Source: Dehalococcoidia bacterium
GTDB lineage: Bacteria > Chloroflexota > Dehalococcoidia > Plut-88900
DNA length: 64,000 nucleotides
NCBI GenBank assembly: GCA_965207225.1
Contig: CBDBLV010000002.1
Coordinates: 64,001 to 128,000 of the forward strand
Direction: 5' to 3'
The position numbers were made by a program, and so were the translations under genes. Numbering within the stretch: position 1 is the stretch's first letter; each line of letters begins with the position of its first letter. Of this stretch, positions 11,207 to 64,000 are shown piece by piece. The notes under the pieces were generated by a model, which searched no databases, was not told the origin of the DNA, and was given only the letters and a program-made list of their open reading frames with translations.

Positions 11207-12909
<1,703 letters not shown>

Positions 12910-12913
<4 letters not shown>

Positions 12914-13140
12914 GCCTGTCCTCCTTTGTCTTGGTCGGTCTTTGCAACCGTGCGGGAGCGCAGTCTCTCCAATCGCTCCCGTCTGCGCCACTCCCGCTCC
13001 TCCATGAACAGGCGTATACCCTGCCGGAGGAGCTCGCTCACGGAGAGGTCGTCCTCACGCATCACCCTCCGCACCTGGGCTTCCATCTCCGGGGGCAGCG
13101 AGAACGTGATGGTCTTGGATCGTCGGGTATTGGTCGGCAT
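12910..13140 (-). CDS. CopG/ribbon-helix-helix DNA-binding protein
   Basis: ITFSLP..SVSELLRQGIR pattern. Paralog at 58063. Confidence 0.8.
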
Positions 13141-31334: not shown

Positions 31335-32996
31335 CTACGGGCTCACAGGCCCCCGAGCCACAGTTCGAAGACGGTCCTGTCTACCGTATACGTTGGTGGA
31401 TTGAGCCGGACTTACATACCGCCCAGCAGACTTGGGTGGGCCGGCCAAATCCAGTTCCTCGGAGTCCCCTTCGGGGTTTGGGCTGTCCTTGACGATGGGA
31501 ACCTTATAGTGGATGGTAGCCTTACTGGGCATAACCACGATGTGCCTGACCAAGGTCTGTACGAAGGCCTTTCGATCGGGAAATTTGCTCGCCTCTGGAT
31601 ACTCTGCCGTGCTCAGCGTCTTGGCGGTAATGGTCGCCACACCGTCCCGGGTAGCCCTGCGCTGGGACAGAGTGGCGTTGGCCTCCTGTAGCAAGGCCTC
31701 GAGGCGCGCCCGCTGATCCCTGTTGGCCCTGATCCGTAGAGTGGCGGTGTCGGCCAGGTCGCCGCCGCTGGACTCTATGAAGTCCCAGATCCGGTCAAGT
31801 CGGAGACGTACCTCTTTGAGTTCAGACTCGATGGTCTCGATTCGGCCTCGTTGCTCTTGGATCAACCTATCCAGTTCATTGACCACAACTGTCGTCATAT
31901 CGTCGTTGTCGTCCCTGGTGAGGATGCTGGAACGAATCCTACCAACGATCATCTGCTCGAAGCGGCGAGCATTTAGGCGGGGAGTGTCGCAGGCACCCTT
32001 GCCGCGCTTTATCAGGGACTGACATACGTAGTAGTGAAACCTGCCGCCCTTGGCGTCCTGGCCCGAGAGTAACGTCTCGCATCTGTAACACTTGACCAGT
32101 CCACTTAGTAAATAGGATCTCGCAATCCTTCGGGGGTGGGTGGTCTTAGACGCACGGGAACGCATCCGGCTGTTGACCCGGCGAAACTGGGCCCTGGAGA
32201 CGATGGCGGGGAATGCGTCCTCTACCCGTACCGGGTCGGCGTCGTCCTTGGCCTTGGCGCCCCAGACGAGAGTCCCCGTGTAGACCTCGTTCCTCAGGAT
32301 GAAGTCGACCGCGCTATTGGACCAGAGCTTTCCTGCGGCGCTTGGGATCTCCTCGTCGTTGATGGCGCGAGCGATGTCCAGCATCCCTAATCCGGTCTCG
32401 GCCATGTCGAAGATGCGCCTGACGACGGGCGCCGTAACGGCGTCGGGTTGCAGTCTGGGGCGCTCCTTCTCCCCATCATGGACCATGACCCTCTTGTAGC
32501 CATAGGGCGTCCTGCTGGAGACCCAGAAGCCGCGGGAGGCGGCTTCCCGCATACCTCGCCTGACATCCGTCGCCAGGTCTTCCGAGTAGTACTCATCCAC
32601 GGTTTCGATGATGGCCTCGGTGAGCGTGCCCGCTGGAGTGTCATCGGTCTGTTCCGTTATCGACACCACCGTCACGCCTCGCCTGCGGAGCAAGGACTTG
32701 TAGGCGATGGCCTGCTCGCGATTCCTGGTGAAGCGTGAGAACTTCCAGACCAGGACCTCTCTGAACGGGGCCTCTGGTGACCTGGCCTCATCGATCATCT
32801 TGTTGAATTCGGGCCTGTCGTCGATGAGCCCACTCTTAGCCTCGTCGACGTACTCGCGCACGACCACGTAGTTGTTCTTGTCGGCGTAGACTCTCAGCGC
32901 CCGAAGCTGGGCGGCCACCGAGAGGTCCACATCCTGACGGTCGCTGGACACTCTGGCGTAAAGAGCCACTGGCGTGGGCTCAAGTCGTTCATTCAT
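31335..32996 (-). CDS. Large serine recombinase LSR2
   Basis: YARVSSDRQD, SRFTR, CYRC Zn ribbon. The conserved tail sits out of frame at 31343-31399. Confidence 0.9.
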   Translation of the reverse strand: MNERLEPTPVALYARVSSDRQDVDLSVAAQLRALRVYADKNNYVVVREYVDEAKSGLIDDRPEFNKMIDEARSPEAPFREVLVWKFSRFTRNREQAIAYKSLLRRRGVTVVSITEQTDDTPAGTLTEAIIETVDEYYSEDLATDVRRGMREAASRGFWVSSRTPYGYKRVMVHDGEKERPRLQPDAVTAPVVRRIFDMAETGLGMLDIARAINDEEIPSAAGKLWSNSAVDFILRNEVYTGTLVWGAKAKDDADPVRVEDAFPAIVSRAQFRRVNSRMRSRASKTTHPRRIARSYLLSGLVKCYRCETLLSGQDAKGGRFHYYVCQSLIKRGKGACDTPRLNARRFEQMIVGRIRSSILTRDDNDDMTTVVVNELDRLIQEQRGRIETIESELKEVRLRLDRIWDFIESSGGDLADTATLRIRANRDQRARLEALLQEANATLSQRRATRDGVATITAKTLSTAEYPEASKFPDRKAFVQTLVRHIVVMPSKATIHYKVPIVKDSPNPEGDSEELDLAGPPKSAGRYVSPAQSTNVYGRQDRLRTVARGPVSP

Positions 32997-33143
32997 CTGC
33001 GTATCTTCCATCCGCATAATGTTTGGCCGGGCCCCATGTGGTCTGAGATAGCAACTCGTCTCTACAGCTCAAGTGCTCTTCTCCGCGGAGCCGGCCGCTA
33101 GGAGGCGGACCCATCAGGCATGGCTCAATTCCCCAAATCCCAG

Positions 33144-35462: not shown

Positions 35463-37058
35463 CTAAGAGGGCTTCGTGACGCGATTTCTGGCAGGCGTGG
35501 CTGAGCCGCCCAGCACAATCTCCTCGGACTCCGCTTCGGGCATGTGACTGTCGTCGGGCATGGGTACGTTGTAGTGGATCACGGCCTTGCTTGGCATGAC
35601 CACAATCTCCCCGACGAAGGTCTCGGCAAAGGCCTTGCGCTCGGACAACTCGCTCTCCCCTAGAAACTCGCCCATGTCCTGCGCCCGTGCAACGATGGCC
35701 TCCAGGTCGGACTTGACCGACCTGCGCTGGGAAAGGATGGACTGAGCCTCCTCCAACGATGCCTCAAGAAGGCTCCGCCTCTCAGTGTTGGCCTTGATCC
35801 GGATATCCATGTCAGCCGGGACGTCGTCGGTGGTCTCCACAACGTCCCAGAGCCGACCTAGCCGGCGCCGCACGTCAGCCAGTTCAGATTCGATGGTCTC
35901 CAGTCTCCCACGTTGTTCGCGGACCAGGCCATCCAGCTCCTTAGCAACGACTTTCGTCAGATCGCCAATGATGCCTTCGGTTAGGATGCTAGAGCGAATC
36001 GTCCTGACGATCACATCCTCGAAGCGGCGGGCGTTGAGCCTGGGGGTATCGCAGCCGCCGCTCCCACGTTTGATCAGGGACTGGCAGACGTAGTAATGGA
36101 ATCTGCCGCTCTTGGCGTCCTGGCCCGAGAGCAACGTCTTGCATCTGTAGCACTTGACGAGCCCGCTGAACATGTAGGAGCTTCCCACCCTACGGGGATG
36201 GGCGATCCTGGGTGCGCGGGAACGCGTCCTGGCGTTCACCCGGCGGAACAGAGCCTTGGAGACTATGGGCGAGAACGCCCTCTCCACTCGAACCGGCTCA
36301 GCCTCGTCTCCGGCAGCGGTGCCCCAGACGAGAGTCCCTGTGTACACCTCGTTGGTGAGGATGAAGCGGACCGCATTACTGGTCCAGTGCTTGCCGGTGG
36401 CGCTGGAGATGCCCTGGCCGTTGAGGGTGCGGGTGATGTCCAGCATCCCTTTTCCGGTGTCGGCCAGCTCGAAGATCCGTTTGACGACATAGGCCGTTTC
36501 CTCATCGGGTTCCAGCTTGGGCCGCTTCTTGGCACCGTCCTGCACCATGATCCTGTTGTAGCCGTAGGGTGTCCTGCTGGCGACCCAGAAACCCCGGGAA
36601 GCGGCCTCTCGCATCCCGCGCCGGACCTCTTGCGCCAGATTCTCCGAATAGAATTCGTCGACGCTCTCGATGATTCCTTCAAGGAGTTTGCCAGCTGGAG
36701 TGTCGTCGGCGTTCTCAGTTATGGAGACGACCCTGACGCCGCGCCTGCGGAGCATGGACTTATAGGCGACGGCGTGCTCGCGCTTCCTGGTGAACCGTGA
36801 GAACTTCCAGACCAGTATCTCCCGGAATGCGGCATCGGGAGATCTGGCTTCTTCTATCATCTTGTTGAACTGGGGCCGGTCGTCGACCCAGCCGCTCTCG
36901 GCCTCGTCGACGTACTCACGGACGACCACCTGGCCATTCTTCTCGGCGTGGTCCCTCAGCGCCCGCAACTGGGCTGCGACCGACAGGTCCACGTCCTGAC
37001 GGTCGCTGGAGACCCTGGCGTAGAGGGCCACCGGTGTGGGTTCGGGTCTTTCACTCAT
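35463..37058 (-). CDS. Large serine recombinase LSR3
   Basis: MSERPEPTPVALYARVSS, SRFTR, FYSENL, CYRC. Confidence 0.92.
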   Translation of the reverse strand: MSERPEPTPVALYARVSSDRQDVDLSVAAQLRALRDHAEKNGQVVVREYVDEAESGWVDDRPQFNKMIEEARSPDAAFREILVWKFSRFTRKREHAVAYKSMLRRRGVRVVSITENADDTPAGKLLEGIIESVDEFYSENLAQEVRRGMREAASRGFWVASRTPYGYNRIMVQDGAKKRPKLEPDEETAYVVKRIFELADTGKGMLDITRTLNGQGISSATGKHWTSNAVRFILTNEVYTGTLVWGTAAGDEAEPVRVERAFSPIVSKALFRRVNARTRSRAPRIAHPRRVGSSYMFSGLVKCYRCKTLLSGQDAKSGRFHYYVCQSLIKRGSGGCDTPRLNARRFEDVIVRTIRSSILTEGIIGDLTKVVAKELDGLVREQRGRLETIESELADVRRRLGRLWDVVETTDDVPADMDIRIKANTERRSLLEASLEEAQSILSQRRSVKSDLEAIVARAQDMGEFLGESELSERKAFAETFVGEIVVMPSKAVIHYNVPMPDDSHMPEAESEEIVLGGSATPARNRVTKPS

Positions 37059-37195
37059 CTTGGGTTCCTTCCACTGTTCGTGCTGTTCGGTCACGGCAGC
37101 CCATGGAACGGTTCCCGTGCAGCCATTCCGCCTAACAGGCATCTTGGGATGCGACAAATGTGGTGGTGGAAATTGCCGAGAAGAGGCTTCCGCGA

Positions 37196-37550
37196 TTGGG
37201 ACATTCAAGCGGCCGCTGCGGATTTTCGGCATGGACGGCCGCCAGAGACAGGACGTCGAGGTGGTCGTGGGCACCGGTGCCTTCTACACCACGTTGCCCG
37301 TTGGCCTGTTGCGCAGCCTGGGAATAGAGCCGAGGGGCAAACGCAGGTCCCACAAGCCGGTGGGCGGGGGATCGATCTGGACTATGGCCAGGCCTGGGTT
37401 TCGATAGACGGCAAGAGCGAGATCACCCAGGTGGTATTCGGAGAGGACGATTCTCCGGCCCTGCCGGGGACATACAGCCTTGATTGTGTGGCCCTGGAGG
37501 TGGACCACATCGAACAGCGGCTGGCCCCCAAGACCCTGATCTTGTACTAG
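37196..37550 (+). pseudogene. Degenerate clan AA (retropepsin-like) aspartic protease
   Basis: VVGTGAFYTTLP (DTG changed to GTG), a frameshift near 37370, then PALPGTYSLD..LEVD. Confidence 0.65.
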
Positions 37551-40875: not shown

Positions 40876-43800
40876 TTACGTGTCCTCGCCCAGCGGGCAG
40901 ATAAAGTAGTGAGGACAACGGGGACAGATGCGGTCGCTAGGCTTGGGTGAGAAATCCTCGCGCAGGATGCCTTTGATGGCTTCGTTGTAACGGTCCAGGC
41001 GAGTCTTGATGGGTCCGGGTCGTGGGTCGACCGGGTCTACCTGATCGGCCGACAGGTAACGTACCTGTACGCGCCGTCGAACGCGTGGCTCAGCCTCCTG
41101 GGCCGCCGTCACGTACAGAGCATAGATGTCCTTTCCGACCTCGCTCTTCGTCGGACGACCGGTGCGGAGACGCTCAACGACCTCGGAGCCATCGCTGAGC
41201 ACCTCGACATGATCGGGCGTGAATCGAATCAGGCCATGTGGCACCGACACCTCCCACGTTGGCCTTGTTGCGGATCCTTGAGACGTGTATGGGCGTCTCG
41301 CAGCCATCTCTACCAGGTCAACGGCTGAGGCACGATACAACTCCTTGTACGGGTGCTCTTCCGGCCCTTGCTCCTGCCAGACTTCTGCCAGGTAAGCGAG
41401 CGCGGCCGTCTCATCTACAGGATTTCCAGAGGCGCGTTCCTCCGCCATCCAGCGCAACACACGATAGACGCAGCGGTGAAACTCGACGTACCCGGAATCC
41501 TCGCGTCTCCGATTCAACCCGAGGACGCTCTCGTAGAAGTACTGACGCGGGCAACGGATGTAGACATCTAGGTCTTCAGCGGCGAAGGGCTCGCTTGCCG
41601 GCGTGGGGTCTGCTACGAAGACCGGAGCAGTAGTCGTGGATGCCCAAGTGACGGGGCTCGACTGATCTCTGGGCAACAGGCCTGCCATCTTGTCGAGCAG
41701 ATCTGACGCATGGCTGTTCTGCGCTCCGTACCTGCGAACTCGCGAAAGACACAGGAAGTCTCTCGCACGGGATAGCCCGACGAAGAAGAGGCACTCCTCT
41801 TCTTCGTCGTGGTCATCACTGGCGGATACGATCATACCCTCGGGAGGAGGACAGGGCTGTGCCTGACGTCGGGCCGGGAACAGACCTTTGCCCAGAAACG
41901 GCAAGTAGACGGCCTGAAACTCCAGTCCCTTGCTCGCATGCACGGTCAGGAGTCGCACTGCATCGATGTCGTCCGCCCAGGTCGGCAGATGCCGGAGTTG
42001 CTTCTCGTCTCCGTATATCTCAAGTCGGCGCACGTATCGCAAGAGACGGAGCTTGGCGTCAGTCGCCTCCCCGGGAGCCGCCGGTCGCTGTTCGTGGACG
42101 AACTGGAGGAATTGATACAGCGCCAGCAAGCGTTGCTGCCCAGCCACGGACGGATCGCCCAAGAGGGTGTCCAGATAGCGGCTTCTCTCGAACAGGTAGT
42201 AGGTGAGCAGCGTCCAGGGTCCGACATGCCTCATCCCATCTACATGGCGTCCCAGCAGAGCGAGACCTTCTCGACCCTTTGGCGAGATGGTCGCTTCCGT
42301 CGCAGCCAGAGCCAATGCGCCCGGGAAAGGGACGTTCCATTCCTTTGCCAGTTCGAGCAGCGCGAGAACATCATCGAGCGGGATGTCGTACTCGGGAAAC
42401 CGCGCCAATCGAACTAGACCCCGCCCATCAGGTTCGCAGGCGAAGGACAAGAGGGATAGCATGTCTCGGATTTCCGGACGCTCGAAGAGGTCACCCAAGT
42501 AGAGAACCGGCACGCCTAAGCCTTCGAGTTCGGCTGCGACTCTGCCAAGGTTTGTATGGGAACGACAAAGAACGGCTTGCTGGCTGTAAGGGATGCCGGA
42601 GGCCCGCTGACGCTCAATCTCCGTAGCCATTCCGGCCGCCTCAGCAGCAAGGTCGTCGGCAACCTCCAACAAGACCCGCCCGCCAGAGTCTGGACGCTTC
42701 GGCTCCCAACGGACGAACCCTGGTCCGCCCTGGCTTGCCCGCATACCGGGTGCCAGCCCTGCGAAGACATCCACAATAGCTGGTTGGGACCTGTAGTTGT
42801 ATCTGAGAGACTTTAGCTTTGCCCCAGGAAAGTCCTCGCCGAATCGCCGCATATTGGCCGGGGCGGCGCCGCGGAACCGGTATATTGCCTGACGTGTATC
42901 CCCTACAACCCAAAGACCTGCGCCCGCACCGGCCAGCTCCTTAAGGAAAAGCCCGCTGGCACGGTTCACGTCCTGGTACTCATCGACCAGAACATGGCGA
43001 TAGGTGCTCCGCAGCGTGTCCCGCACATCGACGTGCGTCCTGAGGAGCGACACTGATTTGTAGATGAGATCCCCGAAGTCGAGTAGATGCTCCCGGTCAA
43101 GGACATCCTGATACTTCCTGTAGACGCGCGCAACCTCGACGGCTTTCTCGGCCGCCTCCGTCTCGTCAGGCGTCGTGGCCCGAGCAAGCATGTTCTCCCC
43201 AAGATCGGCATACTCTTGTGGCCCTACCAGCTCGTCCTTCGCCCGGGATATTGCCGACATGATGTCACGCAGGTAGAGAGCGGGGTCATACAAGTTCTGA
43301 TAGTGGTCCAGCTCCAAGTCTGAGACCATCCCCTCCAGCAGGGCGATAGAGTCGGACGGATCCAGCACGCCTACCCGGGCTGGGAGACCTACGTGAGCGC
43401 TGTACCTGCGCAGCAACTCCAGACCAAAGGCATGAAAGGTCCCGATCCAGATGCGGGGTGCATCATCAGGTCTGGCCTCTGCCACACGTGACCGCAGTTC
43501 CTCGGCCGCGCGGTTCGAGAACGTCAGCGCAAGGATCGATGTTGGAGGCACCCCTTGTTCAAGGAGAAACACGATCCGGCCCACCAAGGTGCGGGTCTTT
43601 CCGGTCCCCGGACCGGCTTCCAGGAGCAACGGCCCCCGCGGCGCGTGAGCAGCGTCCTGCTGGCTGGGGTCCATGGGACGTTCGTCCGTTCCGCCAGCAG
43701 ATACGCCAGCAGGACGGATTTCCGGCGTGAGCAGTGCCCGTGCCATCTGCTGTAGAACAAGCGACTCGGGAAGGCCCAGCCTCTCTGCTGTGTTGCTTGC

Positions 43801-44268
43801 GCTGGCCCTATCAGTCTCGTACCAGGCACGCAGGACGTCAGTCGGGAGCAAGAACTCCCGTGCAAAGACATTCGCCTCACGCTCTCTCAGTTCCTCCGGC
43901 CCATAACCCTCAACCCGATTTACGCCAACCGGCAAGGGTTCCTCAATGGCCTCGGGATCGAGGTTGAATTCTCGCTGGCTCTCCCGTTCGGGGTGCAACC
44001 ACAAGTGGGCATACTCGTGAGCATGATAGAAGCGAGCCAGCCTGGGTTCGACTTCGCGGTTGAACCACACCCTCTTCATGACGTGGTCGAGCGCCGCATC
44101 GGCGCCGTCCAGCAACGAGTCGCCGGCGGCCAGGGCGATTCTTTCGAAGCCAGTCAGCCGCTCTGCCGCAGCGAGCAGTGATTCAGCTGAGGGATCTCCC
44201 CCCGCTTCTCTAAGCGCTGCGGAGCGCTGCGTCCGTGCCAGCCTCCTTATTTCGTCCCAGTGGCTCAC
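40876..44268 (-). CDS. IrrE/ImmA metallopeptidase - UvrD/PcrA SF1 helicase - Fe-S PD-(D/E)XK-fold fusion
   Basis: RFYHAHEYAH..EREANVFAREFLLP; AGPGTGKT, VDEYQD, QAIYRFRGA, NYRS, TVHASKGLEF, SRAR; CPRQY...CPRCPHYFIC. Confidence 0.9.
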   Translation of the reverse strand: MSHWDEIRRLARTQRSAALREAGGDPSAESLLAAAERLTGFERIALAAGDSLLDGADAALDHVMKRVWFNREVEPRLARFYHAHEYAHLWLHPERESQREFNLDPEAIEEPLPVGVNRVEGYGPEELREREANVFAREFLLPTDVLRAWYETDRASASNTAERLGLPESLVLQQMARALLTPEIRPAGVSAGGTDERPMDPSQQDAAHAPRGPLLLEAGPGTGKTRTLVGRIVFLLEQGVPPTSILALTFSNRAAEELRSRVAEARPDDAPRIWIGTFHAFGLELLRRYSAHVGLPARVGVLDPSDSIALLEGMVSDLELDHYQNLYDPALYLRDIMSAISRAKDELVGPQEYADLGENMLARATTPDETEAAEKAVEVARVYRKYQDVLDREHLLDFGDLIYKSVSLLRTHVDVRDTLRSTYRHVLVDEYQDVNRASGLFLKELAGAGAGLWVVGDTRQAIYRFRGAAPANMRRFGEDFPGAKLKSLRYNYRSQPAIVDVFAGLAPGMRASQGGPGFVRWEPKRPDSGGRVLLEVADDLAAEAAGMATEIERQRASGIPYSQQAVLCRSHTNLGRVAAELEGLGVPVLYLGDLFERPEIRDMLSLLSFACEPDGRGLVRLARFPEYDIPLDDVLALLELAKEWNVPFPGALALAATEATISPKGREGLALLGRHVDGMRHVGPWTLLTYYLFERSRYLDTLLGDPSVAGQQRLLALYQFLQFVHEQRPAAPGEATDAKLRLLRYVRRLEIYGDEKQLRHLPTWADDIDAVRLLTVHASKGLEFQAVYLPFLGKGLFPARRQAQPCPPPEGMIVSASDDHDEEEECLFFVGLSRARDFLCLSRVRRYGAQNSHASDLLDKMAGLLPRDQSSPVTWASTTTAPVFVADPTPASEPFAAEDLDVYIRCPRQYFYESVLGLNRRREDSGYVEFHRCVYRVLRWMAEERASGNPVDETAALAYLAEVWQEQGPEEHPYKELYRASAVDLVEMAARRPYTSQGSATRPTWEVSVPHGLIRFTPDHVEVLSDGSEVVERLRTGRPTKSEVGKDIYALYVTAAQEAEPRVRRRVQVRYLSADQVDPVDPRPGPIKTRLDRYNEAIKGILREDFSPKPSDRICPRCPHYFICPLGEDT

Positions 44269-44927
44269 GGTTCCCCCGTAGACCGTTCAAGCGCATACCA
44301 GTGTTCAGCATGCTCGGGACTGATTGTCGGGTCAGCGCGAACCGCGTCGAAGAAGTCCTCCTGCGCCATGAGCTTCGGTGCTTGCTCGGAGCGATGCTCG
44401 GTCCCAGCCGCCAGTATCGGGTCCTGCTGTAGGTAGGCCCTGATGTTCGTTGCCTCGCGTTCAACTGCTTGGGCAATGCGGTCAATCAGCTCTTCCGGGA
44501 TGGTGGCCCAGGCGATCAAGCGGCGGTCAAGCTTTCTGAGGAGGCTGTCCCCCAATCCAACATCATGCGCCAACCGGCGCGGCTCAAGACCCCGTGCTTG
44601 CCCTTCCGCTATCAGACTCTCAAAAGGCACCGCCGGATCTGAGGTAGACTCCGTCGATTGCCCGTGAAGTATGTTCTGGACAACACTCATGCCTCGAAGC
44701 ACCAGCGTTTCTTCGGTGACTTCCTCCGCGTTAGGTGCGGCAGGCAACCACGTCATCAGGCTCCAGCTGGCTGCGAACTCGATGATCTCTCGCTCGAACT
44801 CCGGGTAGCGCCGAGTCCATTCTTCAAGCGGGCTATTGGGGCCGACACCGGACGCCACGTAGGCATCGAGTACGTCCTCCAGGAATTCCTGGTCCATTGG
44901 TCTGTTCATCTCTGTTCTCCTCGCCAT
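44265..44927 (-). CDS. Putative anti-sigma-like N-domain plus XRE-like HTH protein
   Basis: PLEEWTRRYPEFEREI in the N-domain, ARGLEPRRLAHDVGLGDSLLRKLD as HTH-like segment. Overlaps both neighbours. Confidence 0.55.
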   Translation of the reverse strand: MARRTEMNRPMDQEFLEDVLDAYVASGVGPNSPLEEWTRRYPEFEREIIEFAASWSLMTWLPAAPNAEEVTEETLVLRGMSVVQNILHGQSTESTSDPAVPFESLIAEGQARGLEPRRLAHDVGLGDSLLRKLDRRLIAWATIPEELIDRIAQAVEREATNIRAYLQQDPILAAGTEHRSEQAPKLMAQEDFFDAVRADPTISPEHAEHWYALERSTGEP

Positions 44928-45712
44928 GCCTCCAGAATCTCATCAGCTCTGGACAACCAGTTTCTGATCGTTCGAGGTGTCTTGCCGAAGTGTCGGCTGA
45001 TAGTCCGTACAGCCGGGTCCTTGTCTTCGATTGGCCAGTCTTCCAGGTGGCGGAGTAGGTATGCGGACCGGATGGGCTCCTCCAATTGATTCAGCGCCGC
45101 TTCAATCAAGACGTTGTCGATCGCCTCCGATGCGACGGAGCGACCACCTGAAGCAGCCGGCACCACCTCGGCGCCCTGCTGAGTTAGTTCGTCGATGGCC
45201 ACTTGGTCGTAGTCACCGCTGGACTCAGTGTCAAACTGTTTGATTTGCTTCCGAAAGACATCCACCGTGATTCTCTCGATGACCGTCCAGAAGCGGACTT
45301 GAAGAAAGTCCCCGCGGTCGCTATCCAGGTCCAGTATCCGGGTGAATACCTCCGCGACGACTGCTGCGTTCCCATCTTCCCTCAGATCCGTTCTCAAGCC
45401 GCTCAACTTACCGTTTATCCAGGTCGCACAACGCTTCAGCAGGCACTCGGTGAGGTCGTTGACGCATTTTCGATTTCCCACTGCGTGGTGGTGCCGTATC
45501 AGATAAACCAGCGACTCCTCCTTCAGAAATACGGGCGACTCTTCGTCACGAACTATCAGTCGGCTTCGAAGCTCTTCGTCGTTCAGTCCGAGGGCCCCTT
45601 CGATCTGCCTGTCCACAACCGCCAGGCGCTGGTAAAGCTGACCATGCGCGTTGCGGTGTGTCAGTGGCTGCGGCAGGCAGGATTCAACCTGCCGTGAGGT
45701 TTCATGCTCCAT
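44906..45712 (-). CDS. ECF-like RNA polymerase sigma factor
   Basis: Region-2-like segment (..RITVDVFRK) and region-4-like ALNQLEEPIRSAYLL..ISRHFGKTPRTIRNWLSRA. Confidence 0.7.
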   Translation of the reverse strand: MEHETSRQVESCLPQPLTHRNAHGQLYQRLAVVDRQIEGALGLNDEELRSRLIVRDEESPVFLKEESLVYLIRHHHAVGNRKCVNDLTECLLKRCATWINGKLSGLRTDLREDGNAAVVAEVFTRILDLDSDRGDFLQVRFWTVIERITVDVFRKQIKQFDTESSGDYDQVAIDELTQQGAEVVPAASGGRSVASEAIDNVLIEAALNQLEEPIRSAYLLRHLEDWPIEDKDPAVRTISRHFGKTPRTIRNWLSRADEILEAWRGEQR

Positions 45713-45922
45713 CTATGGCCTCATGTACGAGTCTCATGTTCAACCGCTCCAACTCACCTGACTTCCTAATCGTGTGTGACCCCGCAGACCGGAAAGTATG
45801 ACTCTGCGGTCGACAGCAATCTGGACGCCCACCCCCCTGGTTTGAATGGGTCCATCGCCGGGTCTTCCGACCTATCGTTTGCGCCTTCCTCCTTGTCGTC
45901 CCTACGTCTGTATCTGCATTGC

Positions 45923-46756
45923 TCACTCCTGCTGGCTGGTCACCTCCAGCAGATCCTGGCTGAGAGCAACGCTCGATGCGGCGATGAAATCGGAGTCCTC
46001 CGTAGCCGGAACGGCCCTGACAACCAACTGGGTGCCCATGTCGGTCGGTGTGCTGAACAGGCGCTGAAACATCGACAATGCCTCAAAGGTCACCGCGCTC
46101 GAGATCTCGTGCGCCTGCAGGAGTCTGAACTCCTCTGCCATCTCGGCAGTGTCAATGGTGCGAAGGAGCCGGTAGATATCAAAGGCGTCCTTGGGGAGTT
46201 GGTCCCGGCGGCGGATATCGTCGTCCTGGAGACGTTCCCCGATCTTGTGTACCTTCGCCACCAGCAGCGCGGCCGGGCTTGCTACTTTTAGCAGGCATGA
46301 GCGGTCCGAACCTGGAACCAGAGAGCTGACCCTCCTGCGACTATGGCCAACAAGAGCACCCTCGAGTCCATGAACCTTCATGGCCGCCCTGTTCCCATGG
46401 ACGCCAAGCCGGGCGGCCCTGCGGCCAGGCCCGCCCACAGCCTGCGGCACCAGCAGGTCGACCTGCGCCCCACCAGCTCTCCTGTACAGTCCGGGTTGGT
46501 CAGACAGCCGGAATCCTGCGAGGCCCATGGCGTCGCCTAAGGCAGGGCTATCCCTCAGCAGGTCTGGATCAAGCGCGAGGTCTGCGTCATAGGTAAACCG
46601 GGCAACGCCGAAGCTGTCATCCTCGCCCTCTATCTGCACGTATATCGCCTGGGCGCCCACCAGAATGACCGCATCGCTGTGGGGTCCCAGCGCCTCGATG
46701 GCGTCGAGCAGCGTCTCGCGAGCATCTATGTAGTGTTGGTCATCGATAGTTTCCAT
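45923..46756 (-). CDS. Nucleotidyltransferase-fold toxin (AbiEii-like)
   Basis: ILVGAQA..TYDAD, VDLL, ALLVAK, KDAFD. Confidence 0.75.
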   Translation of the reverse strand: METIDDQHYIDARETLLDAIEALGPHSDAVILVGAQAIYVQIEGEDDSFGVARFTYDADLALDPDLLRDSPALGDAMGLAGFRLSDQPGLYRRAGGAQVDLLVPQAVGGPGRRAARLGVHGNRAAMKVHGLEGALVGHSRRRVSSLVPGSDRSCLLKVASPAALLVAKVHKIGERLQDDDIRRRDQLPKDAFDIYRLLRTIDTAEMAEEFRLLQAHEISSAVTFEALSMFQRLFSTPTDMGTQLVVRAVPATEDSDFIAASSVALSQDLLEVTSQQE

Positions 46757-47862
46757 CTGTCCTCATTGTCCCGCATCCACTCCAAGAGGGCCTCCGCCTC
46801 GGTCGGTCCTCGCCCAGGCCCCTTCATGAGGTCGAGCAGGACCTGGGTCACGCGGGCGTAGGTGATGCCGTCGTCGCGTTCAGCGCGCTCGAACGCCACG
46901 GGGTCGAATGGGCGTACGAGGAGAACATTGCCTCCGGTATCTGCCGGGCGCAGTCCCAACAACCGCGCCGCAGTCTCCGGATCCTCAACGTAGAGTGACG
47001 CCAGGCGCGGCTCTGCAAACGGAGCCAGACGATACGCCGCAAAGGACCCGGTCACGGTGTATCGGAGTCCCGTTTCGCGAAGTCGGGCGAACAGCGCCCC
47101 CGTTCCCCTAGGTTCAAGCCACGATGTGAGGGTGTTGGAGGCCGTGAAATCGTAGTCCATGGCCCATCTACGGGCCAGAGCCTCCCAGTCTACCGAGACG
47201 ATGCGTCCTCTTGGGCTCTCCTTGGCGACGATCTCGTCCGCCTCCAACAGGTTGCACACCCTCGATATCATGGCGGGGGAGCTTGCAGTCTCAGCAGCTA
47301 GCTCCCGGGTTCCGAAGGGGGTCCGATAGTCGAGGAGGCCCCTGACGACGCGGCCAGCGCGGCCTCCCTTCAGCGAGCGAAGGGGGCGCTCTTCTCTGAA
47401 CGGGTTCCTGTCCGCCCCCTGGGTCTCGATATACACTGCGGGACGTTCAATGGCGAATCTGATGTTGCCGGTCGAGTCGGCATAGCTGATGCCGGCCTCC
47501 GCAAGCCGTTCCCTCGTTAGGGGGCTCAGGTAGGTCGAAACGAGCATGAAGGCGGGATTGACGCTTGCTTGTCTGCTCCTCGGGTATGACAGCGCCTTCA
47601 GCTGGGACTCCACACTGCCGACGAGCCTGGGTTCCACCGGGTTCGCCTTGACCTCAACGATGATGTCGGACGAGAGTCCATCGGGGTCTCGGATTTCCCA
47701 GATGGCGTCGATTCCGCGGGCGGGGTCCCGCGGGGACCGTACAGCCTCACGCCCCTCGCGGTCGAGCAGGCGCCACCGCCGGGGCAGTCGCGTGCCTATG
47801 TCCTTAGCGGCCTCGTCTAGGAGTCGTGTTTCTGATATGTAGCTGTTGCGCAGCATGTGCAA
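46726..47862 (-). CDS. AbiEi-like antitoxin/regulator (restriction-endonuclease-like N-domain + wHTH + AbiEi C-domain)
   Basis: IDA..VEVK, GISYADSTGN, wHTH, TGSFAA, QVLLDL..GPGR..EA. Confidence 0.75.
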   Translation of the reverse strand: MHMLRNSYISETRLLDEAAKDIGTRLPRRWRLLDREGREAVRSPRDPARGIDAIWEIRDPDGLSSDIIVEVKANPVEPRLVGSVESQLKALSYPRSRQASVNPAFMLVSTYLSPLTRERLAEAGISYADSTGNIRFAIERPAVYIETQGADRNPFREERPLRSLKGGRAGRVVRGLLDYRTPFGTRELAAETASSPAMISRVCNLLEADEIVAKESPRGRIVSVDWEALARRWAMDYDFTASNTLTSWLEPRGTGALFARLRETGLRYTVTGSFAAYRLAPFAEPRLASLYVEDPETAARLLGLRPADTGGNVLLVRPFDPVAFERAERDDGITYARVTQVLLDLMKGPGRGPTEAEALLEWMRDNEDRWKLSMTNTT

Positions 47863-58819: not shown

Positions 58820-59263
58820 ATGACCAAGAAGGAGAGACCGATGAACGACAGGAATGACTACATACCAGCCGCCCTCTACGCCAGGGTCTCCAGCGACCGT
58901 CAGGACGTCGATCTGTCCGTGGCGGCTCAGATGCGGGCGCTCCGGGACTACGCCGAGAAGAACGGCTACCTGGTTGCCCGAGAGTACATCGACGAGGCCG
59001 AGAGCGGGCGCGTCGCGGACCGCCCCGAGTTCCGCAAGATGCTCGACGAGGCCACCAAGCCCGACGCCCCCTTTCAGGAAATCCTGGTCTGGAAGTTCTC
59101 GCGCTTCACCCGCAAGCGCGAGCACGCCGTCGCCTTCAAGTCCATGCTCCGGCGCAAGGGCGTCAGGGTCGTCTCTATCACCGAGCAGGCCGACGACTCG
59201 CCAACCGGAAAGCTGCTTGAGGGCATCATCGAGAGCGTGGACGAGTTCTACTCCGAGAACCTG
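58820..59263 (+). pseudogene. LSR4, truncated by an insertion after FYSENL
   Basis: Close to the LSR1 N-terminus up to ESVDEFYSENL, then the homology stops abruptly. Confidence 0.9.
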
Positions 59264-60842
59264 TTACCGGTGGTTCAATTGACTCTAACTCTTCCGTTGG
59301 GATGCCGAGGGTGAGATTGACGTTGTTCTCCCCGTCGATGGTCACCTCGTCGAGAAGGAGCCGCAACACCTCGCGGCGCTCCTCGTCCGGCAGGTCGTCC
59401 AGTCTGTCGCCGACCCGGTTGGCCCACTCGACCACGTGCTCACCCAAAGCCAGCTTCTCCATCGCCGCCATCTCCCTGGCGCGAAGGTCGTCCAGCCCTG
59501 CCCGCAGCGTCTCCAACCGCTCGGTGATGAACTTGCGCTGCCGGTCCATCTGCTCCTCGGTGATCTTCTCGGTGACGTAGAGTCTGATCACCCGGTCTTC
59601 CTCGAACTGCACCCTCTGAAGCTCGCGTTCCGCCCTGGCAATCTGGTTCTCCAGCCCTCCGTCCTCCTGCGTGTCCAGCGACTCGATGCCGGCAACGATG
59701 AGGCCGGGGGACTCCAGCACCTTCTTGACCTCGCCCCAGACCAGTCCCTCCAGCCGCTCCGCACGGATCATCGTGTGCTTGCGGCAACCCGTGCGGAAGT
59801 GCTGCACGCCGTAGCACTTGTAGTAGCGGCGGGGGACGTCCATCTCGTACTTGTAGACCTTGCCGTTGCGCTTGACCGTCCGCTTCCTGGTGGCCATGCA
59901 GCCCATGAGCATCCCGCACCCGGTGCACCGGACAAGGTGCTGCAACAGGTAGAATATCTTGGTGTTGCGGTAGGAGCGGGTGCGTCGCTTCTTCATGAGG
60001 CTCTGGGCCATATCCCAGGTCTGCTCGTCCACTATCTGCGGGAACGGCACGGGTATCCAGGTCTCCCTGTCCTTCTCGTAAACTCTCGTCCCATCCTCGG
60101 TGGATACGTAGCGGGCCTTGCCGTACCACCACGTGCCCTTGTAGGTCTCGTTGCTGAGGATACGGTATACCTGTCCGTCCCACCACCGCTTGCCGCCGTT
60201 GGCGACGGGAACGCCGTCGGCCATGAGACGCTGGCCGATCACCCGCGCTCCAAGGTCGTCCCGCACGCACATGCGGAAGATGCGGCGGACGACCTCGGCC
60301 TCGTCCTCCGCTATCTCGGGCCTGCCGTCGTCCCCGATGCGATAGCCGTAGGGGACGTTGCCGATGGGGATTCGGCCCTGCTTGGCCGCGCCGCGCCTGC
60401 CCATCGACGCCCTCTCCCGGAAGTTGTCCAGCTCGATCTTGCCGATGGCGGCCATGAGGCCGAAGGTCTTCATGTCGATGGCGTCCATGACGGCTTCCAA
60501 CTCTATGTGGTGCGCCTCGACCACCTCCATGAGGGCGGCTGCAGGGTACATGCCCCGGCTGAGCCGGTCGGACTTCCAGCAGACGATGGTGTCGAAGCGT
60601 CCCCGCCTGGCGTCGGCGAGCATCCTCTGAAACTCAGGGCGCTTCTTCGACCAGCCCTGTCCCACCTCCTGGTAGCGGGCCACGATGGTCAGGCCGCGCT
60701 TTTCGCAGTGGGCCTCCATGTCGGATGTCTGCTCGGAGATGGAGGTCTTGTCCTCGGCGTCCTGGCTCTGGTCCGAGACGCGGGCGTAGATGGCCGCCCT
60801 GCCTTCCTTCGCCTTGCGGCGCTGCATCTTGATTCTTGGCAT
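59226..60842 (-). CDS. Large serine recombinase LSR5 (different subfamily)
   Basis: IYARVS, SDRLSR, PYGY, CTGC. Its last codons run antisense into LSR4. Confidence 0.92.
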   Translation of the reverse strand: MPRIKMQRRKAKEGRAAIYARVSDQSQDAEDKTSISEQTSDMEAHCEKRGLTIVARYQEVGQGWSKKRPEFQRMLADARRGRFDTIVCWKSDRLSRGMYPAAALMEVVEAHHIELEAVMDAIDMKTFGLMAAIGKIELDNFRERASMGRRGAAKQGRIPIGNVPYGYRIGDDGRPEIAEDEAEVVRRIFRMCVRDDLGARVIGQRLMADGVPVANGGKRWWDGQVYRILSNETYKGTWWYGKARYVSTEDGTRVYEKDRETWIPVPFPQIVDEQTWDMAQSLMKKRRTRSYRNTKIFYLLQHLVRCTGCGMLMGCMATRKRTVKRNGKVYKYEMDVPRRYYKCYGVQHFRTGCRKHTMIRAERLEGLVWGEVKKVLESPGLIVAGIESLDTQEDGGLENQIARAERELQRVQFEEDRVIRLYVTEKITEEQMDRQRKFITERLETLRAGLDDLRAREMAAMEKLALGEHVVEWANRVGDRLDDLPDEERREVLRLLLDEVTIDGENNVNLTLGIPTEELESIEPPVTGSRSRTRPRSR

Positions 60843-60870
60843 GGTTGTCTCCTCTGTGTATAGGACTTGG

Positions 60871-61212
60871 CTAAGGCCAACGTCGCAGCGTCAGTCGTTC
60901 GGTGGCCAAACGGTTCATGCTAACACCGGCCTCGGCTGCGTCCATCGCCAGGGCGCGGTGGGTCTCCGGGGGAATGCGCAGGGTGATCGTCCCGCTGTAG
61001 CGGCGTGTGGATATCGGCTCCGGCACTTCAATGCCCTCCTCCAGATTCAGTTGGACGGCGTGGGACACCACCTCTCGAATCCCGGTCAGGGCCTTTTCCG
61101 GCGTACCGTCCAGGTGGCTCAGCAGGCCGAACTCGGCGCACAGGCCGACGTACTCCCCGTCCTCGTCGGACCAGAAGACCCGGTAGGTGTAGCGGTCGAT
61201 CAATTCAGCCAT
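60871..61212 (-). CDS. hicB: HicB-family antitoxin
   Basis: YRVFWSDEDGEYVG..EF, YSG..TLRIPPETHR.LA..A...GVSMN. Confidence 0.88.
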   Translation of the reverse strand: MAELIDRYTYRVFWSDEDGEYVGLCAEFGLLSHLDGTPEKALTGIREVVSHAVQLNLEEGIEVPEPISTRRYSGTITLRIPPETHRALAMDAAEAGVSMNRLATERLTLRRWP

Positions 61213-61453
61213 GCATTTCCTCCAATCTGTCGATTGCCCTGAGCGCCTGACGGACCTGGTAAGCCTTGGCCATTCCCCGAACGGGCTGGATGTTCACCAG
61301 CGGCCTGCCCTGCCAGGGCATCCTGTAGAAGAGATGGCTGCCCCTCTGTCTCGGCTCTCCGAAGTAGCGGTCGCAGACCCTTCTGAGGTCGTCGAACCGG
61401 ACGTTCCGAGGGTTGCGCCGCATGTTGTCCAGTGTCCTGTCCACGATATTCAC
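61205..61453 (-). CDS. hicA: HicA-family toxin
   Basis: NPRNVRFDDL..FGEPRQRGSH..AKAYQVRQ. Confidence 0.85.
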   Translation of the reverse strand: MNIVDRTLDNMRRNPRNVRFDDLRRVCDRYFGEPRQRGSHLFYRMPWQGRPLVNIQPVRGMAKAYQVRQALRAIDRLEEMHG

Positions 61454-61509
61454 ATGATGGCACTAATGCCACCCCGTGTCAAGGACGACGCAGCTTCCTG
61501 CAAGACGCC

Positions 61510-61716
61510 TCAGTCCTCCCCATCCGGGCCGTGCTGAGGCGATGGGTCCTCAGGGGAAGCCTCTTCGTCCTGGGTCAATTTGGCCAGTATGGTGAAGAGC
61601 CTGCGCAGGCGGTCCCGGGCGTCGGGAGCGGGGTTGCAGTTGATCGCCACCACGCGCAGTTCTGCGGAGGCTTCCCTTCGCGTCTTCTGCTCTGTCCTGC
61701 GGGTGGCTTCTTTCAA
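61510..61716 (-). CDS. Small hypothetical protein upstream of hicAB-LSR5
   Basis: PAPDARDRLRRLFTILAK amphipathic helix. Confidence 0.45.
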   Translation of the reverse strand: MKEATRRTEQKTRREASAELRVVAINCNPAPDARDRLRRLFTILAKLTQDEEASPEDPSPQHGPDGED

Positions 61717-62270
61717 GATCGCTGCTCTTGTCGCTTTGCTTGCGGTCGGATAGGTGCTCAGGGTTGACCTACCGGACTACGGCCCGGTCGTTACGTCAGT
61801 GTGGACGACCGGAATGGCGAGCGTTATCCCTCAGAGGGGGTATTCATCCGTGCAACCGGTTTCATTCATCCCCCGTAGCGATGGCGAGACGCAATGGGGC
61901 CAGACCCGGCTACCGGGATGAGGCCGTGGAGGCCACGGCGTCACCGGGGTTGTTGGTCGCTCTGTCGAACTCAGCGCCACCTCGCTCACCTCGTCGTGGT
62001 CTGCTGCGACGCACTTGATCGCAGCGTTCACCAGAGAGTGTGAACGGTTCAGACGCGAAAAAAGACCTCACGCAAGGTGGCACCTTCCGAGGTCCCTTTT
62101 TGGCGGGCCGTTTCTTGCAGTGGCAGGGGTGTACAGGAAAAGGAGTTTGGTGACTGACTGGTCAAAGTCGTGATTCCGTAGCTGAACCAGGGGCAAAACC
62201 CACTCTACCGGACGTGAGCGGTGAGCAATCTGATGAAAGGGCGGAGTCCGGTCTCCAATGACAAAAAGAT

Positions 62271-62354
62271 GCTTGAGGTGGGGGTGCATGACGCGGCCAA
62301 AATCGACGGCCCGATGACAAAACCGGCCAAAAAGTGCGCTTGAGGTGGGGGTGC
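62271..62354 (+). repeat. 17-bp perfect direct repeat GCTTGAGGTGGGGGTGC (62271-62287 and 62338-62354)
   Basis: Read directly. Both copies are preceded by TGACAAAA and followed by ACGCGG. Confidence 0.7.
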
Positions 62355-62439
62355 GTTACGCGGGGTGCGACATCGCAGAAAACACGGACTTGGCGGAATT
62401 CACAGCTGAGACGAATTTCTTGAGGAGGAGGACATTGCC

Positions 62440-62883
62440 ATGAAGACCACCGGACACGGCATTGAGGACAGCAAAGACGTGGAGAACATGTACCACATGC
62501 GGCTCATGACGTTGCTGCAAGAGCTGGTGCGGGAGCGCGGGTACAGGGGCGCTGCGCGGGCGCTGGAGATCGACCAGCGCACGGTGGCCGAGAGCGCAAG
62601 GACGGGAAGGCTGTCGCGGCGTATGCGGGAGGCCCTGGAGCGGGCTTTGCGGTAGGGCGTGGGTTCTACGGCGGTCCGCCAGCGGGAGCCCAACGACGCC
62701 TTGGAGGAACGGTTGGGGGCGCTGGAGGGCGCGGTGAAGGCCCTGGGGCAGGACGACTTCATGGGGGCGAAGATGACCGGGGGCGCTCACGCCCACGCCG
62801 TTCCTTCCCAGCAAGGCGCTGATGGAGGGGGAGACGGAGCGGAGCGTCAGGACGGGAGAAAAATCCTCCGTCGGAGTCCTTGA
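62440..62883 (+). pseudogene. HTH/coiled-coil gene (paralog of 17926) with an internal TAG, ending just before IS630
   Basis: LLQELVRERGYRGAARALEIDQRTV..LSRRMREAL. The stop at 62653-62655 is followed by in-frame ALEERLGALE. Confidence 0.65.
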
Positions 62884-62904
62884 CCCGGCGCAAGTATCTC
62901 GACC

Positions 62905-64000
62905 TAGTACCGTTTCAACTTGAATATGCTGGATAGATGTGTTGAAGTTTAGTGCGAGCGTGGTGAGTGGAGAAGCGCCAGTCTATGACAGCGCCGGCCT
63001 CATTGCGCTCACGTTCCAGCGCCAAGACTTCTCGCTTCAGTACAGCCTCGTCGCCGATTCGGCGGTTGAGACACTGGTTGCTCAAGACACTCAGCTCTAT
63101 CTCGGCCATGTTCAGCCAACTGCCGTGTACTGGGGTGTAGTGGAACTCGAGGCTCTTGGCAATACGGCGCGCTTCCGCCGGCTCGAAGGCATCGTACAAC
63201 GAACCCAGCTTGTGTGTGTTGAGATTGTCCAGCACCAGCCGTATCGTCTGGGTGTGAGGGTACGCCTCATCGACCAGCCATCTCATCTGATATACGAAAT
63301 CCACGGCAGTACGTTGCTCGGTCACCTCGACATGCTTCCAGCCGGCTTTCGGCTCACAGATCATGAACAGGTTGCGTGTGCCGTTTCGCTTGTACTCGTA
63401 GTCATATCGTTCCACCCGCCCCGGCTTGGCCCTGATGGATGGCCTCTTATCGGCCACCAGTTGCTTGGACGTCTCGTCGAAGCAGACCACGGGACGGTCC
63501 GGGTCGTAGTCTTCATCATACAGGTCGAGCACGTCCTCCATTCGAGCTACGAACTCCCCGCTCACTTGGGGGACGCACCACTCCTTCTTCTTCCACGGCT
63601 TGAGTTCGTTTTTTTGAGTATCTGGCGCACCGTCTCGAGCGAGATGCTCTCGGCAAACCCCATCGCCACCACCCTGTCGGCAAGCAGTTGCAGCGTCCAA
63701 ACCGCGTGGCCTTCGGGTGCGTTGCTGCACGCGATGGCTATCAGATGTGCTTCCTGCCTGCCGTCCAACTTGCGCTTCTGCCCCGGTCGCGCTCGCTCAT
63801 TGAGGGCCCCGTCGAGCCCCTCGTGCACAAACCGGGTGCGCACACGCCCCACCGTGGATACGCTTATCAATAGGCCATTGGCGATGTCGCGGTCGGGCAT
63901 ACCTTCGTCTGCCTTCAGCAACACCAACGCTCGCTTCACCTTACGAGCCGAGGCTTCGCCACGACTCACTAACTGCTTCAGATGTGTCCGCTCCGACCCG
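62905..64000 (-). mobile_element. IS630-family insertion sequence (runs off the window), transposase needs a -1 frameshift
   Basis: HTH ORF (63562 onward) plus DDE ORF (CFDE, VLDNL, SWLNMAEIE). A7 slippery site at 63609-63615. The end reads ..GGTACTAG on the minus strand. Confidence 0.92.

Follow-up and report, generated by a model that had tools for sequence, protein, structure and literature searches.

The window analyzed here, a stretch of 64,000 nucleotides (G000:C2:64001-128000) from the 4.03-Mb Dehalococcoidia genome G000, which consists of 5 contigs, contains two oppositely oriented genes for large serine recombinases (LSRs), LSR4 and LSR5, that meet within the coding region of the former. 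According to our analysis, with a probability of about 0.9, LSR5 serves as integrase to a non-phage genomic island of 27.6 kb whose bacterial attachment site (attB) lies in the catalytic-domain coding region of another LSR family, the family of LSR4. For description, we will call the inserting integrase the hunter and the interrupted one the prey. Sequence comparison establishes the anatomy of the insertion and the position of the crossover; it also shows that many species have the junction at the same base and that near-identical elements have entered diverged prey genes in separate events.

The 5′ part of LSR4 is contained in an open reading frame (ORF) of 164 amino acids (58820-59314, plus strand). 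Only the first 148 LSR codons are present in this fragment (58820-59263, plus strand), and codons 1 to 147 (58820-59260, plus strand) represent the catalytic domain only. Specifically, the sole Pfam match in the ORF is Resolvase (1.9e-30), with residues 17 to 148 corresponding to positions 1 to 128 of the 145-position profile. The LSR4 N terminus is 82 to 88% identical to the N termini of about 30 paralogs in the same genome, and this homology stops at residue 148, the Leu of ...VDEFYSENL, which is encoded by CTG at 59261-59263 (TACTCCGAGAACCTG, 59249-59263); the last 16 codons of the ORF are unrelated read-through past this Leu codon. A first-pass annotation of the window had placed the end of the homology at about 59263, which holds to the base, and had proposed a search for the rest of LSR4 beyond position 64000. 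The missing 405 codons were found at G000:C2:150906-152123, i.e., beyond the window (window-equivalent 86906-88123), 27.6 kb downstream on the same contig. In a tblastn search with the intact paralog LSR1, residues 17 to 167 matched the LSR4 fragment, and residues 162 to 565 matched C2:150888-152108 on the same strand with 68% identity. The 3′ part of LSR4 starts with AQEVTRGMREAASRG, the piece from C2:150888 onward reads ...AQEVTRGMREAASRGFWV, and the Pfam domains Recombinase (4.4e-21) and Zn_ribbon_recom (2.2e-12) were detected in it. Joining C2:122820-123263 and C2:150906-152123 in silico restores a full frame of 553 amino acids with zero stops. As this joined protein is only 75.6% identical to its best paralog, LSR4 is a distinct gene rather than a stray copy. 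Judging from the distribution of the domains, the split probably leaves LSR4 non-functional. The host island of LSR4 might, one step further, be immobilized or disabled as well; we word this more cautiously because the function might be supplied in trans by the 32 intact LSR paralogs of this genome.

LSR5 (59226-60842, minus strand), which adjoins the junction, is a complete LSR of 538 amino acids with matches to three Pfam families only, i.e., Resolvase (PF00239, 8.8e-26), Recombinase (PF07508, 5.3e-18), and Zn_ribbon_recom (PF13408, 4.3e-07). The best NCBIfam matches were CcrB, CcrC, and XisF, each far under its cut-off. By its domains and by the putative 2-bp crossover described below, LSR5 is an ordinary LSR. 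Its stop codon (59226-59228) and its last 10 codons consist of antisense LSR4 DNA, in agreement with the earlier observation that the oppositely oriented LSR5 takes its last codons and stop from LSR4. The phage-type attachment site (attP) overlaps the 3′ end of the LSR5 gene, and therefore the computed excised (attP) form of LSR5, with 549 amino acids, has a different tail from the integrated form of 538 amino acids. The first-pass annotation had also pointed to the same att-within-integrase geometry in LSR1 at a tRNA gene, and the 3′ end of LSR1 indeed overlaps a tRNA-Lys gene in antisense. In LSR5, the region equivalent to the target motif reads KIELDNFRERA, i.e., LSR5 does not carry its own target motif.

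The DNA between the two cores comprises 27,640 bp, with LSR5 at the left end. In G000, attL reads GAGAACCTGTTACCGG and attR reads GATATCCTCGCCCAGG. The crossover dinucleotide CT of attL corresponds to bases 1 and 2 of the FYSENL Leu codon (59261-59262, plus strand), and the matching CT of attR is located at C2:150903-150904, beyond the window (window-equivalent 86903-86904). The P′ arm (59263-59300, plus strand) makes up the left terminus of the island, falls within the 3′ end of the LSR5 gene, and is conserved among 25 copies; the P arm forms the right end of the island, beyond the window. The P arm matches the reverse complement of the P′ arm at 15 of 30 positions clustered near the core, resulting in an imperfect inverted repeat. 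For four further copies, attR could be located as well (L004/L083, element of ~25 kb; L005/L088, ~27.6 kb; L024/L084, ~18.5 kb; L003/L085, ~18.6 kb). Bases 1 and 2 of the Leu codon are equal at both ends in all five attL/attR pairs, with CT in four and TT in L005/L088. The third base of the codon is G in 25 of 25 attL sites, which marks it as element-derived, and is C, G, T, G, and G in the five attR sites, which marks it as target-derived there; the base preceding the codon is variable in attL and always C in attR. Since the flanking bases segregate as element- or target-derived in five of five pairs, the central dinucleotide is CT (or TT). A 2-bp central dinucleotide without a longer target duplication, as suggested by this segregation, would be as expected of a serine integrase.

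A misassembly or a chance deletion could also have made LSR4 appear truncated beside an unrelated LSR gene. The genome is metagenome-assembled, with an estimated contamination of 8.3%, and its probable source runs (X1, X2) give only short contigs over this repeated gene family, with no piece spanning the junction among those listed. However, the other half of LSR4 follows further along the same contig, correctly oriented and in frame, and the same junction occurs in 19 other assemblies as well as in a contig from an unrelated sponge-metagenome study (run X5, record 23, 59177-59539), which bridges the junction with ~93% identity and 24 differences. The first-pass annotation had named a missing downstream half or unrelated insertion sites as signs of such an artifact; instead, the half exists and the identical junction recurs in 24 of 80 loci, and the probability of this explanation is close to nil.

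The recurrence of the junction was analyzed with relatives of LSR5, 80 of the 165 reported ones being examined; 78 of these originate from Dehalococcoidia/Chloroflexota metagenome-assembled genomes and two from bins with other labels. The C-terminal motif of the LSR5 homologs was anchored by tblastn (a regex anchor caught only 39 of 84 copies), and the groups of downstream flanks, which were over-merged by tblastx single linkage, were refined by neighbor lists and target queries. In 24 of the 80 loci (19 other assemblies), the LSR5 homolog directly adjoins, at its 3′ end, the N-terminal piece of an antisense LSR gene, and each of these pieces breaks off after the same Leu codon. The junction, ...GAR AAY YTG followed by the conserved P′ arm, is identical to the base in these loci. 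The target arms vary at synonymous positions, e.g., TCN versus AGY for Ser, and therefore the target genes differ. In a quick maximum-likelihood tree of 81 homologs, from which three rows were left off for having no stop within the locus, the 25 cases including G000 fall into two starred clades, where they account for 17 of 21 and 8 of 10 rows. The target label changes 8 times on this tree, versus a mean of 21.7 after shuffling, and none of 500 shuffles gave a value as low. The first-pass annotation had suggested checking whether homologs of LSR5 recurrently lie beside LSR genes interrupted at one and the same codon; this applies to 25 of the 31 members that make up the two clades, found in G000 and 19 other assemblies. 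One genome (OZ244924) contains up to three copies in different LSR genes (L005, L007, and L024).

A degenerate attL pattern was also used to scan 185,579 species genomes. The scan returned 30 stretches, 26 from Chloroflexota and four from other phyla (Bacteroidia, Flavobacteriia, Alphaproteobacteria, and Ruminococcus). All 26 Chloroflexota stretches have an LSR N-terminal fragment exactly at the site, and the hunter is visible in 25, the one remaining locus starting at the junction; the four others have neither an LSR fragment nor a hunter. Two assemblies, OZ244885 and JAPPGG01, were added in this way. In metagenome contigs, the pattern occurred in eight stretches, three of which contain both genes.

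These data bear on the possibility that LSR5 is a low-specificity, transposon-like LSR of the TndX type, landing in LSR genes merely because they are numerous. There are 38 Resolvase-domain matches in G000, six of the 31 clade members lie in other sequences, and the relative L072 is found at another LSR codon (~residue 131), all of which would fit such an enzyme. In contrast, 25 of 31 members occupy the base-exact same position, and the sister clades each have a single target of their own. DUF4368, given as typical of multi-targeting LSRs in the main text of Durrant et al. 2022 (PMC10083194), is not among the Pfam matches of LSR5. Low specificity of this type is thus very unlikely.

The clearest case of repeated integration comes from the comparison of G000 with the genome G002. 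The two elements are collinear, save for two insertion sequence (IS) copies in G000 and small indels, and their identity amounts to 98.0% for LSR5, 99.9% for a pair of genes including a NotI-like endonuclease, 99.9% for Pnkp, and 100% for the last 403 bp of the element. The prey halves are only 80.9% (N-terminal) and 78.6% (C-terminal) identical, and there is almost no match outside the prey gene. The drop in identity sits exactly at the two junctions, and we therefore conclude that the same element integrated separately into different LSR genes in two species. Hunters that are 99.6 to 99.8% identical at the protein level (L003/L004; L015, L017, and L045) likewise reside in prey fragments that are 76 to 88% identical in DNA. 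The genome G001 has only the LSR5-HicB end and a few segments in common with G000, and two copies in G004 have only LSR5 in common, showing that the cargo is variable. Among the 14 prey fragments that were comparable without gaps, none contains stops.

If a single ancient insertion had been inherited or copied together with the host island, the recurrence would merely reflect descent. All cases come from one bacterial class, and the pairwise identities of hunter and prey are weakly correlated (Spearman coefficients of 0.26 for protein and 0.37 for DNA, 91 pairs), as descent would predict to some degree. Such a history is difficult to reconcile with near-identical hunters in prey that are only 76 to 88% identical, with an identity that falls from 98-100% to 79-81% exactly at both junctions of the G000 and G002 elements, with up to three copies in different LSR genes of one genome, and with a cargo and size varying from 18.5 to 27.6 kb; we consider it extremely unlikely. 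The proposal of the first-pass annotation that a conserved site in a family of island integrases serves as attB of LSR5 gains support from both the recurrence and the presence of near-identical elements in different LSR genes.

In the mechanism we propose, attB would consist of ~40 to 50 bp within the catalytic-domain coding region of prey LSR genes. LSR5 would recombine its own attP, overlapping its 3′ end, with this prey site, with the crossover at the dinucleotide (CT, or TT in some lineages) with which the FYSENL Leu codon begins. Integration would leave the prey integrase in two parts, one a catalytic stub and the other the DNA-binding remainder, and would swap the last LSR5 residues for ones encoded by antisense prey DNA. 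Because serine recombination is conservative, excision would restore the prey gene exactly. LSR5 itself presumably catalyzes the event, and the element may still be able to excise. The site is likely favored because it occurs in many copies, is kept constant by constraint on the protein, and can be occupied without harm to the host.

The prospect of exact restoration also fits a domesticated switch, in which the island would be kept because regulated excision turns the prey integrase on and off, as with the skin, SPbeta, and heterocyst elements. Excision would give an intact 553-amino-acid frame, and both prey halves are intact frames in G000, L004, and L005 (in L003, the N-terminal half is open and the C-terminal half is short at 368 amino acids). 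LSR interruption elements of this general design are known, as described in the accessible part of Hilton et al. 2016 (PMC4874684). Against such a role, the element passes from species to species and from one prey gene to another, its cargo is variable and defense-like, and some prey copies decay. A switch is therefore very improbable, and an island that uses prey integrase genes as its attachment site remains the preferred interpretation.

Several observations weigh against this interpretation or restrict it. No empty-site ortholog of LSR4 was found among 40 related genomes, the best intact relative being 80% identical. Assembled contigs of public runs, which are fragmented over this multi-copy family, gave no evidence of attB or attP forms, i.e., of excision or an empty site; loose contig ends at 59259 (probable source runs X1 and X2) run on into the sequence of intact LSR paralogs and not into an empty LSR4 site. 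The own island of LSR4 is also poorly recognizable, with no tRNA at the LSR4 3′ end and, among the 10 ORFs scanned upstream, genes of a defense-like character (helicase-nuclease, AbiE, nucleotidyltransferase-like) and none matching a conjugation family. No recombination directionality factor was identified for the LSR5 island. Six of the 31 clade members (L006, L008, L022, L023, L026, and L030) are flanked by other sequences, so that the specificity is not absolute. In these six, similarity to the element ends at or beside the same core and is followed by unrelated DNA, which is consistent with secondary sites; the flanks are unlike the P arm, and thus these are not attP forms. Some copies are decaying: in L024, the C-terminal prey half stops after 252 amino acids and the N-terminal half is truncated, and in L109, only residues 4 to 314 of the hunter are present, from which it follows that some insertions are dead ends. 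Finally, 32 other (F/Y)YSENL-type sites in G000 are unoccupied. The Phe of FYSENL is found at 24 of 25 occupied versus 20 of 32 unoccupied sites, the other 12 unoccupied sites having Tyr at this position; a preference for Phe sites is a hint only, because the occupied and unoccupied sets come from different genomes.

The prey belongs to an integrase family that is abundant in this genome, with 33 LSR matches listed in a tblastn screen of G000 with LSR1. In 7 of these 33, the 3′ end overlaps a tRNA gene in antisense (Ile, Ala, Lys, Val twice, Gln, and Met), which identifies the prey genes as integrases of islands inserting at tRNA 3′ ends. The conserved LSR 3′ end runs directly into the CCA/acceptor end of whichever tRNA is present, pointing to a family of islands that may accept a wide variety of tRNA genes as insertion sites. 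Another 14 of the 33 form seven convergent tail-to-tail pairs with a second subfamily (C3:23306-26505, C3:57376-60572, C3:85311-88432, C4:734070-737233, C4:871798-874937, C5:1960477-1963613, and C5:2030723-2033886). The two subfamilies are ~55% identical, and several pairs show an overlap of as much as ~25 nt between the aligned 3′ ends. At the point where unpaired LSR copies meet a tRNA, paired ones meet a tRNA-3′-end-like sequence inside the last codons of the partner. At the LSR4 3′ end (L002:12040-12100), there is a related inverted repeat. Within the window, LSR genes are located at 11207-12991, 31335-33017, and 35463-37274, all on the minus strand. As the first-pass annotation had stated, LSR1 and LSR3 contain FYSENL, and LSR2 contains YYSEDL.

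Relatives of LSR5 were found at further sites. In a sister clade, the copies L033, L034, L035, and L037 break the LSR gene after ...Y(T/A)G(T/A)LV, at ~residue 272 of LSR1; the P′-arm pattern of this second-site clade returned only its five already known copies. The copy near LSR residue 131, L072, is a close relative of the residue-272 copies. In L033 and L034, the prey fragment comprises residues 167 to 272 only, with a first-clade-type attR on one side and a second-clade attL on the other, and in L037 the prey gene cut at 272 is also met, at ~residue 105, by the end of a third gene of the LSR5 family. Single prey genes have thus been cut by two hunters. Hunter sites on the prey LSR accordingly lie at ~residue 167 (25 cases) and ~residue 272 (4 cases), with single cases near 105 and 131. 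In the doubly cut prey genes (L033, L034, and L037; ~4500-5100 in each locus), internal pieces of ~105 to 165 codons are left.

Other relatives target non-LSR genes. Eleven copies are located next to the C-terminal portion of a helicase gene, with the motif ...YTMRQASRRSWRIGQ. A paralog in G000 (C5:1542736-1544370), 71% identical to LSR5, adjoins the N-terminal part of such a helicase gene, in the opposite orientation to the 11. In this region (G000:C5:1542736-1546162; L093:2586-6162), the helicase gene has a ResIII domain, adjoins a DUF6094 methyltransferase gene, and carries the insertion at ...LCWYETENF; at the insertion in G000, the DNA has CCGAGAAC in common with the LSR site. Three copies (L044, L049, and L066) lie in comM (Mg_chelatase).

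Tentatively, and with the odds somewhat against it, these findings could be extended to a layered mobile-element ecology in sponge-associated/marine Dehalococcoidia, in which abundant tRNA-3′-end islands are parasitized by a radiation of integrase-hunting LSR islands. Hunter clades would have evolved separately for different protein-constrained sites, the choice of the catalytic core being adaptive. If this were true, the prey could not mutate the site away at the protein level and the competitor island would be immobilized, while the hunter would gain a multi-copy, host-neutral landing pad that travels with the prey.

The part of the LSR5 island that lies in the window extends from 59263 to 64000 and continues beyond it to G000:C2:150902 (window-equivalent 86902). 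Next to LSR5, an antitoxin gene of the HicB family is located at 60871-61212 on the minus strand (Pfam HicB, 3.9e-13), and directly upstream of hicB, in the HicA position, an ORF of 82 amino acids (61205-61453, minus strand) is a candidate for the toxin gene, although it had no match in Pfam, NCBIfam, or PHROGs. Of the HicAB pair assigned to the island by the first-pass annotation, HicB is therefore retained, whereas HicA lacks a profile match. In G001 and G002, the island copies are 96% conserved over the hicB region, this ORF included. An IS with a DDE_3 transposase (1.3e-26) and an N-terminal HTH ORF (HTH_32, 2e-17), which we take to be IS630-like, starts at 62908 and continues past 64000 to window-equivalent 64114 (minus strand); a second IS with a DDE_Tnp_1_6 domain (Pfam) lies beyond the window (G000:C2:130423-132156). 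Both copies are absent from the otherwise collinear, 98 to 100% identical G002 element and thus represent recent insertions into the G000 island.

The further cargo beyond the window includes a NotI-like restriction-modification pair (NotI-like endonuclease and D12 methyltransferase), a Hen1 and Pnkp RNA-repair pair, and, according to Pfam, a 986-amino-acid SBP_bac_3/PPC protein, an HTH protein, a GYD protein, and a multihaem cytochrome. PADLOC recognized only the methyltransferase (type II) and a weak Hen1 match. None of the 20 island ORFs scanned with Pfam matched relaxase or conjugation/mobilization families, and 6 of the 20 had no match in Pfam, PADLOC, or PHROGs. A prophage was rejected, with PHROGs matches for none of 10 island ORFs (nine unassigned ORFs and the ORF in the HicA position). 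As judged from this gene content, the element is a genomic island with partly defense-like cargo and not a recognizable phage or conjugative element. Near the right end of the island, a stretch of ~130 bp (G000:C2:150643-150772; L002:10643-10772) matches many copies spaced ~325 bp apart, which form arrays in G001, G002, and G003 (e.g., G002:C1:335577-338795); it may be a tandem repeat or part of a gene for a repeat protein.

Elsewhere in the window, a Replic_Relax protein of 555 amino acids is encoded beside LSR1 (13234-14901, minus strand) and may provide the mobilization function of the tRNA-Lys island. Defense-like genes lie between the LSR genes of the window at 24702-26327 and 40876-47862 (both minus strand); these encode an SMODS/DncV-like nucleotidyltransferase with SEC-C, a 1130-amino-acid IrrE-peptidase/UvrD-helicase/PD-(D/E)XK fusion, and an AbiEi/AbiEii pair.

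Intragenic insertion and precise restoration are familiar features of LSR elements. SprA of SPbeta and SpoIVCA of the skin element of Bacillus, as well as DsiB of the Dehalococcoides ssrA islands, integrate within a gene or at a tRNA-like site, which is restored precisely on excision. The targets of these elements, spsM, sigK, and ssrA, are host genes and not the integrase gene of another mobile element. Like the skin, SPbeta, and cyanobacterial interruption elements, the LSR5 island interrupts an ORF that is restored by removal of the island in silico.

The closest parallel in geometry is provided by streptococci. As described in the accessible part of Ambroset et al. 2016 (PMC4701971), serine-integrase integrative and conjugative elements (ICEs) and other integrative elements of these bacteria insert inside conserved genes, including traG of another ICE, and those that target rumA have their att site within the 3′ end of the integrase gene, with the result that integrase and target exchange their C-terminal ends on integration. 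This reciprocal exchange is the same geometry as that of LSR5 and LSR4. In contrast to the streptococcal elements, however, the target of LSR5 is a gene from a family of island integrases, presumably that of another element, and is hit within the catalytic domain, there is a single LSR and not a triplet, the hosts are Chloroflexota, and no conjugation or mobilization gene was found among the 20 island ORFs scanned.

Cyanobacterial DNA interruption elements carry LSRs of the XisF type, range from 1 kb to 1 Mb, and reside in protein-coding genes, several per gene being possible; Table 1 of the same survey includes among the interrupted genes one for an “integrase family protein”, two transposase genes, and a primase gene (Hilton et al. 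2016, PMC4874684, as far as accessible). Whereas this source contains, in its accessible part, one integrase-gene case and no recurrence, the LSR5 clade uses one LSR codon in ~20 species, with no context of cell differentiation. In the main text of Durrant et al. 2022 (PMC10083194), most LSR clusters are described as site-specific for one conserved gene, the Mg-chelatase/comM family being the commonest target, and comM is also used by the LSR5 sister clade (L044, L049, and L066). Recombinase genes are not named as a target class in the passages considered here, its supplement aside.

In the literature outside subscription journals and supplements, we found no description of an LSR clade whose regular attB is a fixed catalytic-domain codon of another LSR family, nor of several LSR clades converging on different sites of one LSR gene. 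The enzyme type, intragenic LSR elements, and an ICE inserting into traG of another ICE are thus already known, and recurrent targeting of LSR genes is what was not found in print. The LSR5 island offers a natural example in which an integrative element makes use of a second one and probably silences it, and it helps to explain the nesting and accumulation of islands with defense genes (restriction-modification, RNA repair, and toxin-antitoxin) in these genomes. In addition, some 25 natural sets of LSRs and attachment sites, including matched CT and TT core variants, could be used as candidate orthogonal recombination tools. Whereas host genes or tRNAs are the targets usually ascribed to site-specific integrases, the integrase genes of other elements apparently fill this role for a whole clade.

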